Assembly: GCA_947478495.1 (NCBI GenBank)
Contig: CANJVW010000001.1
Span: 62,658-126,657, forward strand
DNA: 64,000 bases
Source: Legionellales bacterium
GTDB lineage: Bacteria > Pseudomonadota > Gammaproteobacteria > DSM-16500
Direction: 5' to 3'
Part shown: piece by piece, positions 59,269 to 63,999 of the stretch
Layout of the letters: each line of letters opens with the position of its first letter
Position numbering within the stretch: position 1 is the stretch's first letter
Notes under the pieces: generated by a model
What the model was told of the DNA's origin: nothing
Seen by the model: the letters and a program-made list of their open reading frames with translations, nothing else
Database searches by the model: none
Position numbers and translations under genes: made by a program

Positions 59269-60015
59269 TCAACTACTTTTCTCATAGGCCGCTAACACTT
59301 CCTCGACGCTACCCAGCATCATAATTTTTCCCTTATTTAGCCACAACGCTTTATTGCAAAATTGTCGAATCACTGCCGCTGCATGTGACGCAATCACCAA
59401 GATTTCTGCTTTATCATAAAGCGCTTTTGCACGCACCGCTGCTTTTTCAAGAAAATGTTTATCGCCTGCGCCAATTGCTTCATCCAGCAGCAAAATTTCG
59501 GGCTCAATACACGTACAAATCGCAAAACCTAAACGCATTTTCATGCCAGCAGAATATCCTCTCACTGGCAAATTGAGCGAGTCTTTTAATTCAGAAAATT
59601 CTTCTATTCCAGGAATGAGTGATTTAATTTTTTTCTGAGAAAACCCCAACAACATTCCCATGTAATAAATGTTGTGGTACCCGGTTCTCTCCATATCCAT
59701 TCCCATACAGACATCAAATAAAGCAGAAACCCTACCCTCAATTAATAACCGACCTTTAACAGGCACATACAATTGGCCAAGTGTTTTGAGCAACGTACTT
59801 TTCCCTGAGCCATTCGTCCCAATTAACCCCAACCGATCGCCTTGTCTCAGAGAAAATGACACACCATTCAGCGCTTTAACGACCGTCATTGCATTTTCTT
59901 CGGCGTATACCCTGCCGCGCGTCGTCAAACTGATTAATGCTCGACGAAAGGAATAATCATGATTTCCATAAATGGGGTAATGTACTTCAATATTTTCCAA
60001 TTCTATTTTTGCCAT
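59269..60015 (-). CDS. polysaccharide-export ABC transporter ATP-binding protein (KpsT/Wzt/TagH-like)
   Basis: Walker A GTNGSGKST. Family-typical YSAGMKMRLGFA signature. Walker B ILLLDEA. 248 aa, so no C-terminal carbohydrate-binding extension. Confidence 0.85.
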   Translation of the reverse strand: MAKIELENIEVHYPIYGNHDYSFRRALISLTTRGRVYAEENAMTVVKALNGVSFSLRQGDRLGLIGTNGSGKSTLLKTLGQLYVPVKGRLLIEGRVSALFDVCMGMDMERTGYHNIYYMGMLLGFSQKKIKSLIPGIEEFSELKDSLNLPVRGYSAGMKMRLGFAICTCIEPEILLLDEAIGAGDKHFLEKAAVRAKALYDKAEILVIASHAAAVIRQFCNKALWLNKGKIMMLGSVEEVLAAYEKSS

Positions 60016-60028
60016 TATCTACTCGCTA

Positions 60029-61768
60029 TCATTTCTTTTGTTGAATATACCCTAAATCCATGATTTGTGTCACGATCTCATGAACAGCAGCTTCTAAAGA
60101 AATATTGGAGGTATCCAGTGATATTTCCGGATTAAGTGGTTTCTCATAAGGATCGCTGGTGCCGGTAAATTGAGATACCAAGCCTGCTCTCGCTTTTTTA
60201 TACAGCCCTTTACGATCTCTCATTTCACAAACAGACAATGGGGTCGACACATATATTTCAATAAACCCACCCGTTTCAGATACCATCTCTCTGAATATCG
60301 TACGAGCACTTGAAAAAGGAGCAACCAATGCACAGAGCGTAATGCCTTTATGTTTTGCAATTTCTTTTGCAACGAATGCAACTCGCTTGATATTCGTTTC
60401 TCGATCTTCACGACTAAATCCGAGCTCGCTCGCAAGATGTGTGCGTATCTCATCGCCATCCAACAACGTTACCTGTCTTTGCGTCAATTCTCGCAATTTA
60501 ATCGCAAGACCCTGCGCAATGGTTGTTTTTCCCGAAGAAGGCAACCCTGTTAAAAGAATCGTTAATCCTAAGTCATGCTTCGGTGGATAAGCGCAACGCA
60601 ATTCTTGAATCACATCCGGATAAGAAAACCACGCAGGCACATCCAATCCTTCTCGTATACAATGACGTAATTCGGTGCCGGAAATACTTGCCGGTACTTC
60701 ATCCAACGGAAATTCATCCAACGTAAAATAACGTAATTGCTTTTCACTAAATACCATTTCTTGAAATGGCACAATCGTTATTCCCATTTCTTTCTGATGC
60801 GCTAATGCTAGTTCTTGCGCTGCACAAGGATGATAAAAATCGTTGCCTTGACTGTCTTTCCCTGGACCCGCATGATCACGCCCCACAATAAAATGCGTGC
60901 AGCCATTGTTTTTTCGAATCAAGGCATGCCAAACCGCTTCCCTGGGACCCGCCATACGCATAGCCAACGGCAATAAACTTAGGAAGACAGGGGACGATGT
61001 ATACGTTTTCAATATATGCTGATAACAACGCACGCGCGTCTCATATTCAATATCGCCTGACTTTGTCATTCCAACAACCGGATGCAGCAATATCACGTCA
61101 GCGCCTGTTATTTCTGCAGCACGCACTGTGAGCTCCTGATGGGCGCGATGCATCGGATTACGTGTTTGAAAACCGACTATTTTTTTCCATCCCCGCTCTT
61201 CAAAAATACTGCGTAATTGGGCAGGTGTATGGCGCAGTGACGTAAAATTATAATGATGAGGCAATGACAAACCAAACACCTCTCCACCCACATAATACGC
61301 TTGGACCTCATGATACAAATGAAATACACCGGGATGAACGGGATCTGTTGTACCAAACACGGCCTGCGCTTCTTTCGCTTTTTGCGCCTCCGTCACTTCC
61401 CAGATATCACCCACTTGCATGATTGCTAATAACAAACCTTCTTTATCCCGTAGCGCAATGGCATCACGGCACTGCAATGTGCTCGCAACCGAACGAGATA
61501 CATCGAGCATAATGGGCATGGGCCATAAGGCGCCGTCTGCAAGGCGCATATGATCTATAACGGAATGGTAATCTAATTGATTTAAATACCCATTCAGGGG
61601 GGAAAATCCCTTATTAAGAATTAACTCTAGGTCACACAGATGACGCTGAGATAGCGTGATACTCGGGAGTGGACATGCAGCATGTCTGTACTGCTCAATA
61701 TCGTGAGGCGAAAGCAAACGAGGCGGTCTTATTGTATCATCTGCGTTGAGATTGATAAGCGAATCCAT
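60029..61768 (-). CDS. bifunctional sulfate adenylyltransferase / adenylylsulfate kinase (PAPS synthase)
   Basis: ATP-sulfurylase motifs QTRNPMHRAHQEL and VGRDHAGPG. C-terminal APS-kinase P-loop TGLPSSGKTT and LLDGDEIR. Confidence 0.9.
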   Translation of the reverse strand: MDSLINLNADDTIRPPRLLSPHDIEQYRHAACPLPSITLSQRHLCDLELILNKGFSPLNGYLNQLDYHSVIDHMRLADGALWPMPIMLDVSRSVASTLQCRDAIALRDKEGLLLAIMQVGDIWEVTEAQKAKEAQAVFGTTDPVHPGVFHLYHEVQAYYVGGEVFGLSLPHHYNFTSLRHTPAQLRSIFEERGWKKIVGFQTRNPMHRAHQELTVRAAEITGADVILLHPVVGMTKSGDIEYETRVRCYQHILKTYTSSPVFLSLLPLAMRMAGPREAVWHALIRKNNGCTHFIVGRDHAGPGKDSQGNDFYHPCAAQELALAHQKEMGITIVPFQEMVFSEKQLRYFTLDEFPLDEVPASISGTELRHCIREGLDVPAWFSYPDVIQELRCAYPPKHDLGLTILLTGLPSSGKTTIAQGLAIKLRELTQRQVTLLDGDEIRTHLASELGFSREDRETNIKRVAFVAKEIAKHKGITLCALVAPFSSARTIFREMVSETGGFIEIYVSTPLSVCEMRDRKGLYKKARAGLVSQFTGTSDPYEKPLNPEISLDTSNISLEAAVHEIVTQIMDLGYIQQKK

Positions 61769-62654: not shown

Positions 62655-63833
62655 AATAGAGGGTCCAATAGCGCGATTACATGCTTCGATTTGCTGCAAT
62701 GAAAAAACGCTGCACCACTCATCCTTTTTGCCTGCTCTAAAGTGAGTGGTTGCCATATCTCTCGCAAGGCTTGACGCTGAAAAGTGATCTGCTGGCATGC
62801 CATAAAAATGTAAAACTTTGCGAACAAATGCCTCTTCATCATCAGCCAGTTCATCAAATGTGGTTAGCAAAATATCGTACTTCTGAGGATCAATGGCAGA
62901 AAGCCACCGCTCCAACCAATCGACTACGTTAGGCAAAACACTCTTGATAGCCCAATCCACTTTCTCGGAAAGTGAGCACGTTAAATACTTATCTAACTCA
63001 TCTCGAATGGTAAACCAATCCTCTATATTGTAAAGCTGATCCGTTTGAACATAGTAATCAATATGGTGCACCATGCTTAACACAACTGCCCGAGGATCGC
63101 GTATTTGCACAATCCATTTTTTAACATATTTTTTAAGACGCTCAAGCACCGGTAGACAACCATGTAAATGTTGAGCGGCTAGCACCCCTCCCCCTTCAAA
63201 CATTTTAAAGGACTCAACCGATGGTATAGCGGTGAGCAATGGATAAACCGCATAACCCAGTCCTTTTGATAACAGCTGGGTAGTGTATATCGTCCCTGAT
63301 TTTGGCATAGACACAACGACAACACTCGGAAAGTCAGGGCCTTGTTTGGCGGGATCCACAGCAGGAAATTTACCAAAAAAAACCTGGTATCGAGAAAGCT
63401 CGGCCTGAGCCTCTGCACGTTCTGTTTGGCACTGAGAAAGCTCGGTTTGGAGACCCGTTATTGTCGTTTGCGATACCAAAACACTCTGACGAATCGTCGA
63501 TGGACGCGCAATCAAGAATGGAGCACGATACGCTCTGAGTACTTTATTTAATAAAGAAGTTATTCTTGACAACAACGCTCTCCTCGTAGCAATGGATGGG
63601 CTCTGACTTAATGCACTTGGCATATGACTTATCACTCCAAACCGAATCGCTCCCCATAATCGCTCATGGAGATAAAAAAATCCTACTTTAGCAAAAAATT
63701 CAAATAAGCCAACATATAGCGCAAGATTAATTTGGCGAGTCACCATCCACGTAACAAACATCGTCACAAACGTACCAAACAGACGCCAACTCACTGATTT
63801 AATCACACTACGAAGATGAGATTCTCGCATCAT
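62574..63833 (-). CDS. DUF2061-like membrane domain / coiled coil / PAPS-dependent sulfotransferase fusion
   Basis: N-terminal RSVIKSVSWRLFGTFVTMFVTWMVT...FFYLHERLW (DUF2061-like two-TM module). Gln/Glu-rich linker LQTELSQCQTERAEAQAELSRYQ. 5'-PSB motif SMPKSGTIY and 3'-PB motif IRDPRAVVLS. Confidence 0.8.
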   Translation of the reverse strand: MMRESHLRSVIKSVSWRLFGTFVTMFVTWMVTRQINLALYVGLFEFFAKVGFFYLHERLWGAIRFGVISHMPSALSQSPSIATRRALLSRITSLLNKVLRAYRAPFLIARPSTIRQSVLVSQTTITGLQTELSQCQTERAEAQAELSRYQVFFGKFPAVDPAKQGPDFPSVVVVSMPKSGTIYTTQLLSKGLGYAVYPLLTAIPSVESFKMFEGGGVLAAQHLHGCLPVLERLKKYVKKWIVQIRDPRAVVLSMVHHIDYYVQTDQLYNIEDWFTIRDELDKYLTCSLSEKVDWAIKSVLPNVVDWLERWLSAIDPQKYDILLTTFDELADDEEAFVRKVLHFYGMPADHFSASSLARDMATTHFRAGKKDEWCSVFSLQQIEACNRAIGPSILKRFGWDALGQRAEEPRVPQAVLVVE

Positions 63834-63999
63834 CTTTCATCCTCCATTTTTCGTTAACATACAATTCAAATTCCGTTCTAAATTGTGCGACTGAAAAGCG
63901 AGCCGCCTGTTCAACGCAATCGCTTACTAAAAAACGATTTCTTTCAAATAAAGCAATAGCGTTAACGATAGCCGATGATGTTTGCTCTTCAAAAAACAA
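63808..63999 (-). CDS. C-terminal fragment of an upstream gene, possibly a glycosyltransferase (continues beyond window)
   Basis: Frame is open to the window edge. Overlaps the sulfotransferase start by 26 nt. The C-terminal ...ARFSVAQFRTEFELYV resembles GT family 1/4 tails, but too little sequence is available. Confidence 0.35.
   Translation of the reverse strand: MFFEEQTSSAIVNAIALFERNRFLVSDCVEQAARFSVAQFRTEFELYVNEKWRMKDDARISSS

Follow-up and report, generated by a model that had tools for sequence, protein, structure and literature searches.

A probable sulfation cassette among the Wzm/Wzt surface-polysaccharide genes of an uncultured, Coxiellaceae-like gammaproteobacterium

If the genes for making PAPS, transferring its sulfate and clearing the by-product PAP lie together among genes for polysaccharide export, then we can ask: What is being sulfated? 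The question is raised by a cassette of three genes in the 64,000-nt stretch of DNA analysed here (the window), coding for a PAPS synthase, the phosphatase CysQ and a sulfotransferase (ST), which sits between a GT4 glycosyltransferase gene and wzt-rfbA. Metagenome assemblies are all that is available for the organism. A preliminary description had assigned the cassette to sulfation of an exported glycan and not to sulfur assimilation. All of its genes were found at the positions first noted, and their identities were confirmed by Pfam and NCBIfam profiles.

The PAPS synthase (579 aa; 60029..61768, minus strand) scored 796 bits against the NCBIfam model NF004040, bifunctional sulfate adenylyltransferase/adenylylsulfate kinase (cut-off 669), and consists of the Pfam domains PUA_2, ATP-sulfurylase and APS_kinase, with the motifs QTRNPMHRAH, GRDHAG, the P-loop GLPSSGKTT and LDGDEIR in its translation. 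CysQ, the 3'(2'),5'-bisphosphate nucleotidase that removes PAP (61851..62654, plus strand), reached 285.2 bits with TIGR01331 (cut-off 228.8) and 2.8e-48 with Pfam Inositol_P. The third gene (62574..63833, minus strand), with a GGAGG Shine-Dalgarno sequence 8 nt before its ATG, codes for a ST of 419 aa in which two Pfam domains exceeded the gathering score, Sulfotransfer_1 (1.2e-10, 41.7 bits against a cut-off of 22) and DUF2061 (5.7e-16); the NCBIfam profile search gave no family match for this protein.

The catalytic domain of the ST (residues 170-400; 62634..63326, minus strand) contains PKSGT at 177-181, His222, RDPR at 245-248, Ser253 and FRAGKKDEW at 365-373. The PAPS-binding motifs PKSGT (5'-PSB) and RDPR..S (3'-PB, residues 245-253), already recognized in the preliminary description, are conserved across the family as well: among 150 aligned members H222, R245, S253, W310, R366 and E372 are invariant, and conservation reaches 90% or more at P177, K178 and S179. 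The spacing of the His, Arg and Ser residues matches that of His108/Arg130/Ser138 in cytosolic SULTs (SULT1E1 numbering). With Foldseek the AF2 model matched only PAPS sulfotransferases, and the family profile found SULT structures in the PDB at 1.5e-13; the 51 PDB sequences matched by this profile are only SULT-, StaL/Teg- and TPST-type enzymes, mycobacterial Stf0 being absent from them. Among solved structures the closest are those of small-molecule SULTs, so that the fold gives no indication of the acceptor. SULT1/2/7, StaL and Teg12 (PF00685) share the fold and the PAPS-binding and catalytic residues with our ST at about 15% identity, but they are soluble and act on small molecules or glycopeptides, whereas the ST described here is membrane-anchored and encoded in a glycan locus.

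The predicted anchor is a feature that the preliminary description had missed. The N-terminal DUF2061 domain (residues 10-60; 63654..63806, minus strand) covers positions 1-51 of the 52 in Pfam PF09834 and forms a membrane hairpin of two hydrophobic helices (4-32 and 37-65 in the AF2 model). Both termini of the hairpin are predicted to be cytoplasmic, since positive residues flank both ends. The hairpin would tether the ST to the membrane, at the site where glycans are assembled on their lipid carrier. The linker that follows (residues about 61-169; 63327..63653, minus strand) has two long helices, 81-114 and 122-153, predicted by AF2 with low confidence, and the second of them is heptad-like (TGLQTELSQCQTERAEAQAELSRYQ). 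Similar helical or coiled-coil N-terminal extensions are found in the relatives P0002-P0004 and in many further members of the ST family.

Could the PAPS synthase and CysQ mainly serve assimilatory sulfate reduction, with the PAPS reductase encoded elsewhere and the ST-like gene as a minor or inactive passenger? Enterobacterial assimilation does include CysQ and APS kinase. However, no cysH, cysI/J, cysD/N or cysK was detected among the 46 window ORFs scanned with Pfam, as the preliminary description had said of the window, nor along some 20 kb of the contig next to the window. The scan included most window ORFs of at least 150 aa; it left out a pair of 1375 and 1367 aa (taken as rpoB/rpoC by size), the smaller ORFs next to this pair in 36609-39156 and four ORFs of 150-170 aa. 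The ST has kept every catalytic and PAPS-binding residue, and the PAPS synthase gene lies in a close-spaced run with wzt and rfbA; both points also speak against assimilation as the main role. Coxiella and Legionella in culture are auxotrophic for cysteine, which counts in the same direction. We therefore regard the assimilatory role as highly improbable.

The genes around the cassette point to a glycan. The Wzt-type exporter ATPase (248 aa; 59269..60015, minus strand) is a nucleotide-binding domain alone, without a C-terminal carbohydrate-binding module; its top NCBIfam matches, galactan Wzt/RfbE in first place (251.9 bits over residues 4-246; cut-off 400) and TagH, both fell short of the respective cut-offs. 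Its partner permease Wzm lies on the same contig about 12 kb past the window (L150, 13066-13884), after a 1143-aa glycosyltransferase of three modules, so that wzm and wzt are split about 16 kb apart. Galactan Wzm/Wzt models were the best match for both proteins, and the whole is an ABC-transporter-dependent glycan locus with split wzm/wzt. Next to wzt is the gene of the glucose-1-phosphate thymidylyltransferase RfbA/RmlA (58306..59229, minus strand; TIGR01207, 434.5 bits, cut-off 360.65). After it comes a hydrophobic ORF of 87 aa (58028..58291, minus strand), called as a 79-aa gene on a metagenome contig, which matched nothing in Pfam or NCBIfam and may not be a real gene. The flank on this side continues with the dTDP-glucose 4,6-dehydratase RfbB/RmlB (56960..57961, plus strand; TIGR01181, 478.9 bits, cut-off 365.1), an ArnC/GtrB-like GT2, GtrA and a WbaP-like initiating transferase (44392-45822). 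The other flank holds a C-methyltransferase, a GT4, the 1143-aa GT4-GT4-GT2 enzyme, Wzm, an FkbM methyltransferase, another GT4 and a UDP-GlcNAc 2-epimerase. No sulfate transporter or permease was seen near the cassette.

The cassette is closely interlocked with these genes. The PAPS synthase gene is the first of the PAPS synthase-wzt-rfbA run, with gaps of 13 nt to wzt and 39 nt from wzt to rfbA, just as first noted; cysQ is divergent from it and the ST gene converges on cysQ, with which it overlaps by 81 nt. The 82 nt between cysQ and the PAPS synthase gene (61769..61850) presumably contain the promoters of both. One promoter-like site was predicted there, on the minus strand (61841-61814), in a promoter count not above the shuffled expectation. 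The overlap of the ST start with an upstream gene, possibly a glycosyltransferase, was borne out too: the 3' end of a gene that is GT4 by Pfam (63808..64000, minus strand) has its TAG stop codon within the ST ORF, 26 nt in. The complete GT4 gene can be read from L147 (8890-10026), an identical contig, and codes for 378 aa with the domains Glycos_transf_1 / Glyco_trans_1_4. Judging from the overlap, the ST is probably translationally coupled to the GT4; this overlap and the 13-nt gap before wzt argue that the cassette is co-expressed with the glycan genes.

PAPS supply, sulfate transfer and PAP clearance are thus combined within a surface-polysaccharide cluster, and the product is therefore probably a sulfated O-antigen or capsule. 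We consider it probable that this is a dedicated sulfation cassette of the Wzm/Wzt locus, acting as follows. The fused ATP sulfurylase/APS kinase would convert sulfate and 2 ATP to PAPS. With the DUF2061 hairpin and the helical stalk keeping it on the cytoplasmic side of the inner membrane, the ST would use PAPS to sulfate a hydroxyl group on a sugar of an undecaprenyl-diphosphate-linked glycan; the glycan itself would be assembled at the same membrane by the neighbouring GT4 enzymes and the 1143-aa glycosyltransferase. CysQ would turn the inhibitory by-product PAP into AMP, and Wzm/Wzt, with wzt in the same close-spaced run as the PAPS synthase gene, would export the completed sulfated chain. 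That the acceptor is this glycan, sulfated ahead of export, we infer from this arrangement. The assignment made in the preliminary description is in this way upheld as the best reading, with Wzm, the GT4 overlap, the ST anchor and the ST relatives described below in its favour.

It is useful to follow the cassette and its components in other genomes. The order and orientation ST-cysQ-PAPS synthase recur in an independent contig, L001, at identities of 40%, 56% and 52%, and for this reason the arrangement is not due to chance. There the three orthologous genes are followed by DUF2061 as a free gene of 69 aa (61% identity to the domain in our ST) and then by the SAM-cycle genes metK-ahcY-pfkB-metH, not by glycan genes. 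The closest PAPS synthase relatives belong to Coxiellaceae MAGs; their operons also code for Sulfotransfer_3 proteins, a phosphatase of the IMPase family and an FAD protein, and in one case adjoin a neutral ceramidase gene. In a Chlamydiia MAG the order is MFS transporter-GH1 hydrolase-ST family member-PAPS synthase. The cassette is a portable unit, whose Coxiellaceae and Chlamydiia relatives pair PAPS synthase with a sulfotransferase outside glycan settings. Around distant ST family members (27-33% identity) in 18 metagenome loci the neighbours were heterogeneous and glycan genes were not enriched. Such neighbourhoods, and the small-molecule SULTs as structural neighbours of the ST, would suit a general sulfation unit that reached its place among the glycan genes by accidental insertion and acts on another membrane-associated or soluble molecule (a lipid, glycolipid, secondary metabolite or host-derived compound). 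We consider this unlikely in view of the co-expression suggested by the GT4 overlap and the short gap before wzt. The ST family also argues against it: some of its roughly 2,300 representatives have GT2 domains, coiled coils or TPRs fused to them, and GT2 was the only catalytic fusion partner seen (6 of the 52 longest members). The relatives P0003 and P0004 lie inside glycan clusters, with a sugar epimerase on one side and a WecA-like transferase on the other. The other flank of the L001 cassette ends after about 1 kb and codes for a 304-aa fragment with a heptad-like repeat at its C-terminus, which could belong to a glycan locus but has no NCBIfam match.

If the acceptor is the exported glycan, as we prefer, the sulfate might be placed along the chain or at its end. 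ABC-transporter-dependent O-antigens are terminated by enzymes such as WbdD, which caps with methyl or phosphomethyl, and WbbB, which caps with Kdo (PMC11231755, PMC3482155). WbdD, WbbB and the K. pneumoniae O4/O7 terminators likewise combine an ABC-dependent locus, a multi-module glycosyltransferase and a modifying enzyme joined through a helical spacer to a membrane element (PMC11231755, PMC3482155). By analogy, the ST could add a sulfate cap at the non-reducing end, its anchor and stalk serving as a spacer that helps to set chain length. The 1143-aa enzyme is a multi-module, polymerase-like glycosyltransferase; in the ST itself the membrane anchor is separated from the catalytic domain by about 100 residues that are predicted to form long helices; and many family members have extended coiled coils or TPR bundles, or are built as GT2-coiled coil-ST. 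However, all characterised terminated systems have a carbohydrate-binding module on Wzt (PMC11231755, PMC3482155), which the Wzt of this locus lacks. Their anchor is a C-terminal amphipathic helix, whereas the ST has an N-terminal transmembrane hairpin and a stalk that is short and modelled with low confidence. Two methyltransferases of the cluster could do the capping instead, and the literature searched contained no sulfate-capped O-antigen. A terminator role is accordingly still more doubtful than an acceptor outside the glycan.

Sulfation within a polysaccharide cluster has precedents. The capsule (CPS) cluster of Cobetia marina KMM 1449 has cysNC, cysD, cysQ, a ST, a kps ABC exporter and rml genes (PMC11766843), and that of Vibrio sp. 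KMM 8419 is similar, with PAPS genes, sulfotransferases, an ABC exporter and rml genes (PMC11641403); in both, a CPS containing Rha-2-sulfate has been proven chemically (PMC11766843, PMC11641403). The remark in the preliminary description that sulfated envelope glycans are rare in Gammaproteobacteria overstates the novelty, as PAPS genes and a sulfotransferase within an ABC-exported glycan cluster were already known with proven sulfated products. Our locus resembles these clusters in joining PAPS genes and a ST to an ABC-exported polysaccharide with rml genes, and Cobetia in having cysQ too. It differs in its fused Sat-type ATP sulfurylase/APS kinase in place of the heterodimeric CysD/CysN(C) sulfurylase, in split O-polysaccharide-type Wzm/Wzt in place of Kps export (group 2/3 capsule, kpsDMTE/kpsSC), in the DUF2061 anchor on the ST and in the lack of a visible sulfate permease, and it comes from an uncultured Coxiellaceae-like lineage. 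Rhizobial NodPQ/NodH and LpsS and mycobacterial Stf also join a dedicated PAPS supply to a carbohydrate sulfotransferase that modifies an envelope or secreted glycoconjugate. The comparison with them made in the preliminary description stands for this functional logic, which is all that they share with the cassette; a specific sequence relationship was not found (LpsS itself was left out of the comparison), and no NCBIfam family matched the ST. A tblastn search of 72,556 plasmids, assumed to include rhizobial symbiosis plasmids, gave no match to the ST domain at 1e-8. The DUF2061 domain, for its part, occurs in Gemmatirosa fused to APS kinase.

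All genes named in the preliminary description were confirmed by ORF listing and profile searches. The bifunctional PAPS synthase (579 aa, 60029-61768, minus strand) comprises PUA_2, ATP-sulfurylase and APS-kinase domains and scores 796 bits against NF004040, the equivalog model for bifunctional sulfate adenylyltransferase/adenylylsulfate kinase, whose cut-off is 669. Its two catalytic domains are intact in Pfam (ATP-sulfurylase 6.5e-80, APS_kinase 1.2e-55), and the sulfurylase motifs QTRNPMHRAH and GRDHAG, together with the kinase motifs GLPSSGKTT (P-loop) and LDGDEIR, are legible in the translation. 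The cysQ gene (61851-62654, plus strand) diverges from the synthase gene at a distance of 82 nt. Its product covers positions 4-249 of 250 in TIGR01331, the equivalog for 3'(2'),5'-bisphosphate nucleotidase, with 285.2 bits (cut-off 228.8). The sulfotransferase (ST) gene (419 aa, 62574-63833, minus strand; Sulfotransfer_1 plus DUF2061) converges on cysQ, and the two overlap by 81 nt at 62574-62654. At its C-terminus the ST extends about 18 residues further than its homologues.

The gene 5' of the ST, previously suspected to code for a glycosyltransferase, was identified on the full contig as a 378-aa GT4, and its TAG stop lies 26 nt within the ST ORF. At the other end of the cassette, wzt starts 13 nt 3' of the PAPS synthase gene, and rfbA (58306-59229, minus strand, over the TIGR01207 cut-off) follows after another 39 nt. 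A promoter and terminator scan gave a count no higher than the shuffled expectation.

It is probable, in our view, that this cassette sulfates a lipid-linked glycan exported by Wzm/Wzt. The fused synthase would make PAPS, the membrane-tethered ST would sulfate the lipid-linked glycan during its assembly by the neighbouring glycosyltransferases, CysQ would clear PAP, and Wzm/Wzt would carry the sulfated product out. Could the same genes serve sulfur assimilation instead? Sulfur assimilation as the main role of the cassette was considered and rejected; we hold it to be very improbable. As had been reported for the window, cysH, cysI/J, cysD/N and cysK are absent from the 46 ORFs scanned with Pfam, which include most window ORFs of at least 150 aa; outside the scan lay two large ORFs (taken by size to be rpoB/rpoC), smaller neighbours at 36609-39156, and four ORFs of 150-170 aa.

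Residues 170-373 of the ST belong to Sulfotransfer_1 (PF00685; 41.7 bits against a gathering cut-off of 22), which also matches 51 of the 52 long members of its family, while no NCBIfam model matches the ST. Across 150 aligned members, H222, R245, S253, W310, R366, and E372 are invariant, and D246, P247, R248, H256, G368, and W373 are conserved in at least 90%. The same level of conservation was found for P177, K178, and S179 of the 5'-phosphosulfate-binding loop PKSGT (177-181). The sequence FRAGKKDEW at 365-373 is the C-terminal PAPS-binding motif. The spacings of H222, R245, and S253 are 23 and 8, compared with 22 and 8 for the His, Arg, and Ser of SULT1E1. These residues correspond to the 5'-PSB Lys, the catalytic His, the 3'-PB Arg and Ser, and the C-terminal R-x-G...W of cytosolic sulfotransferases, and because they are conserved the enzyme looks catalytically competent.

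When 1.84 billion representatives were searched exhaustively with a profile, 2,271 homologues of the ST were recovered, 655 of them at E <= 1e-30, so the family is large, though unnamed. A word-indexed search returned five homologues (three when rerun with the 150-sequence profile), a pattern scan with the ST turned up no relative in 185,579 species-representative genomes, and tblastn against a plasmid collection at 1e-8 gave no ST-domain match. Thus a large uncharacterised family of bacterial sulfotransferases, with about 2,300 representatives at 50% identity, has been delineated; it forms a bacterial branch of PF00685 in which N-terminal coiled-coil, TPR, GT2 or DUF2061 extensions are frequent. 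Among PDB sequences the family profile matches solely SULT-, StaL/Teg-, and TPST-type enzymes (best 1.5e-13), and Stf0 is absent from these matches. The parallel with NodH, LpsS, and Stf in the preliminary description is a functional one only; no specific sequence kinship was found with Stf or, by an indirect comparison, with NodH.

The AlphaFold model of the ST, built from five sequences, has a mean pLDDT of 62.7, with the catalytic domain mostly at 70-90. It places hydrophobic helices (4-32 and 37-65) first, then long helices (81-114 and 122-153), and finally the alpha/beta domain. All 50 Foldseek matches listed are PAPS sulfotransferases, although weak ones (E about 1e-3, TM 0.35-0.5). The predicted fold would identify the donor and not the acceptor. 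One 279-aa family member, P0005 (L004 10001-10840), has the signal-peptide-like start MANLRNIFIKKLFYVAVILCILQGQAYG. A signal peptide on a PAPS-dependent enzyme looks odd unless the protein acts outside the bacterial cytoplasm.

The sulfotransferase domain had been recognised correctly in the preliminary description, but the N-terminal DUF2061 (residues 10-60; 63654-63806, minus strand) was overlooked. We found DUF2061 linked to PAPS enzymes in three arrangements. In the window it is fused to the ST. On an independent contig, L001, which carries an orthologous ST-cysQ-PAPS synthase cassette, a free 69-aa DUF2061 gene (L001 4656-4865; 61% identity) lies 19 nt 3' of the PAPS synthase. On plasmid 2 of Gemmatirosa kalamazoonensis (NZ_CP007130.1; L153 5995-6732) it is fused to an APS kinase; this fusion directly follows cysQ and a CysN-like gene, and the locus also contains an AT3-SGNH acyltransferase, a Sulfotransfer_4 protein, and a carbamoyltransferase. 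An HMM search of 80 PAPS synthase loci showed no adjoining DUF2061 beyond the window lineage and L001, and the link is therefore not general. The simplest reading suggests that DUF2061 is a two-helix hairpin by which enzymes of the PAPS pathway are tethered to the inner membrane. Since positive residues flank both sides of the hairpin, the catalytic domain of the ST is predicted to be cytoplasmic; PAPS is made in the cytoplasm. A literature search on DUF2061 function yielded nothing useful, and the attachment of this hairpin in three independent ways to PAPS-making or PAPS-using enzymes provides a first functional context for it.

How is the cassette connected with glycan export? The Wzt protein (248 aa, 59269-60015, minus strand) is an ABC ATPase; among the NCBIfam models it matches galactan Wzt/RfbE (251.9 bits) and TagH best. 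Hydropathy revealed no Wzm within the window; it was found further along the contig (L150), where the region past the window end was read on the identical contig in the ENA and Logan assemblies. This Wzm is a 272-aa ABC-2 permease (PF01061; L150 13066-13884) with galactan Wzm/RfbD as best match (226.8 bits). Both scores are below the equivalog cut-offs, and the Wzm and Wzt assignments are therefore made at family level only. The exporter is split: wzm, grouped with the polymerase genes, ends a glycosyltransferase operon about 16 kb from wzt, which adjoins the PAPS synthase.

Past the window end, on the strand opposite to GT4 and ST and diverging from GT4, are genes for a TylC3-type sugar C-methyltransferase, a GT4, and a 1143-aa GT4-GT4-GT2 enzyme. 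The same run continues with a PaaK/CapK-like adenylating enzyme, a beta-helix protein, a 228-aa protein, a class I methyltransferase, Wzm, and PfkB, beyond which come an FkbM methyltransferase, another GT4, and a UDP-GlcNAc 2-epimerase. The 228-aa protein (L150 11169-11855), encoded two genes before wzm, resembles by eye a degenerate ABC ATPase without a Walker A motif; it has no family match. Inside the window the glycan genes include rfbB (56960-57961), a WbaP-like initiating transferase (Bac_transf/CoA_binding_3, 44392-45822), and a module at 48835-56957. Encoded in this module are an ArnC/GtrB-like GT2, a PRK07233 FAD oxidoreductase, GtrA, an MsbA-like ABC exporter, and a short SDR (227-aa fragment), along with a tandem pair of paralogous polytopic membrane proteins (about 472-498 aa) that Pfam does not match. 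Its gene content resembles a pathway that would modify glycans in the periplasm by way of polyprenyl-phosphate sugars, perhaps with a step that oxidises or reduces the lipid-linked sugar. Amid the glycan genes is one for an NhaA Na+/H+ antiporter (47567-48802), flanked by those for an unassigned 520-aa membrane protein and GtrA.

As judged from the encoded families, the parts of an ABC-transporter-dependent pathway are present: Wzm, Wzt, a multi-module glycosyltransferase, and an initiating transferase. Since glycan genes lie on both sides, the cassette is placed in the middle of a locus of this type spanning at least 45 kb. The TylC3-type C-methyltransferase gene (Methyltransf_13/14; L150 2473-3711) accompanies rfbA and rfbB, and neither rfbC nor rfbD was seen. 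There are hints here of a glycan with a C-methyl-branched 6-deoxy sugar, reminiscent of the virenose in the LPS of Coxiella burnetii.

The neighbourhoods of relatives bear on the acceptor of the ST, and a non-glycan acceptor, which we consider unlikely, has to be weighed against the glycan here. In favour of a glycan, the genes for P0003 and P0004 (31% identity over the full alignment, 35-37% over the part matched) are flanked by genes for a sugar epimerase and a WecA-like transferase, and GT2s and a CapD-like enzyme are encoded close by. GT2 domains, present in 6 of the 52 longest members, are the sole catalytic partner seen among them; TPRs occur in about 11 of these 52, and coiled-coil-like N-terminal extensions in at least 26 of 135 scorable members of the family. 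Other neighbourhoods are neutral or point away from a glycan. The closest relative of the ST, P0002 (40%), belongs to the L001 cassette, where the PAPS synthase and free DUF2061 are followed by metK-ahcY-pfkB-metH; on the other flank, with about 1 kb available, there is a 304-aa fragment with a heptad-like repeat at its C-terminus and no NCBIfam match. In a Chlamydiia MAG the order is MFS-GH1-ST-PAPS synthase, and 18 metagenome loci with short distant members had unrelated neighbours and no glycan enrichment. The nearest PAPS synthases, at 62-64% identity, come from uncultured Coxiellaceae MAGs, where they belong to different operons that also encode Sulfotransfer_3 proteins and an IMPase-type phosphatase. 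In L008 and L009 (Coxiellaceae/Gammaproteobacteria MAGs), a conserved operon in the region around 8500-14500 codes for an FAD/NAD-binding protein, PAPS synthase, one or two Sulfotransfer_3-like proteins, and the IMPase-family phosphatase; in L008 a eukaryote-like neutral ceramidase (13918-15996) comes next. The set of PAPS synthase, sulfotransferase, and PAP phosphatase is evidently recurrent and, portable; it is the local wiring that ties the window copy to a glycan.

A variant of the glycan reading makes the ST a terminator that would add a sulfate cap at the chain end. Coiled-coil, TPR, and GT2 fusions and an anchor-stalk-enzyme layout are features of glycan terminators (PMC11231755), and the ST is predicted to have such a layout, with two helices of about 33 residues each between anchor and catalytic domain, modelled at low confidence. 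Its family shows the coiled-coil, TPR, and GT2 fusions counted above. The order GT2, long coiled coil (100-300 aa), sulfotransferase was observed in P0053, P0060, P0071, P0075, P0090, and P0036. In P0068 the ST domain is preceded by about 600 aa of coiled coil, and P0030 has three ST domains in tandem. Such layouts recall those of O-antigen polymerase-terminator proteins. With a protein of the GT2-coiled coil-ST type as query, tblastn against plasmids matched GT2 domains only. However, the C-terminal CBM of Wzt, which recognises the cap, has been found in all characterised terminated systems (PMC11231755), and the window Wzt lacks an additional C-terminal domain, since the NBD profile spans residues 4-246 of its 248. 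This counts against capping, which we hold to be quite unlikely in this locus. We give as little credence to the broader conjecture that the family includes unrecognised terminators sulfate-capping ABC-exported polysaccharides, with these layouts as molecular rulers and DUF2061 as a tether localising PAPS synthesis and use. A literature search on sulfate-capped O-antigens and coiled-coil sulfotransferases gave nothing useful.

The cluster logic of the window locus has close counterparts in two marine bacteria. The cluster of Cobetia marina KMM 1449 combines cysNC, cysD, cysQ, a sulfate permease, an ST, a kps ABC exporter, and rml genes (PMC11766843), and Vibrio sp. KMM 8419 follows a similar cluster logic (PMC11641403). 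In both strains the sulfated products are chemically proven (PMC11766843, PMC11641403); for the window locus a sulfated product is predicted. The window locus differs from these clusters also in its fused Sat/CysC synthase, split Wzm/Wzt exporter, DUF2061-anchored ST, and lineage. The gene-cluster logic is already established in marine bacteria, and the central idea will not surprise specialists. Useful leads come from the DUF2061 link and from the fusion architectures; family members with GT2 or coiled-coil fusions are candidates for polysaccharide sulfotransferases, few of which are known and which are of interest for biotechnology.

The prediction of a sulfated glycan is plausible. If it is true, the surface of this Coxiellaceae-like bacterium from the environment, which probably lives in association with a eukaryotic host, bears a sulfated, polyanionic glycan. 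Sulfated glycans are similar to the glycosaminoglycans of hosts and can change phage recognition, adhesion, and interactions with complement or antimicrobial peptides. The organism is called Coxiellaceae-like only from its best PAPS synthase matches, at the 62-64% identity mentioned. Its EF-Tu (39874-41064), S7 (43223-43795), and LpxC (22868-23788) each form a single-member cluster at 90% identity in a collection of 15 billion proteins, and these lone clusters indicate a deep, poorly sampled lineage.
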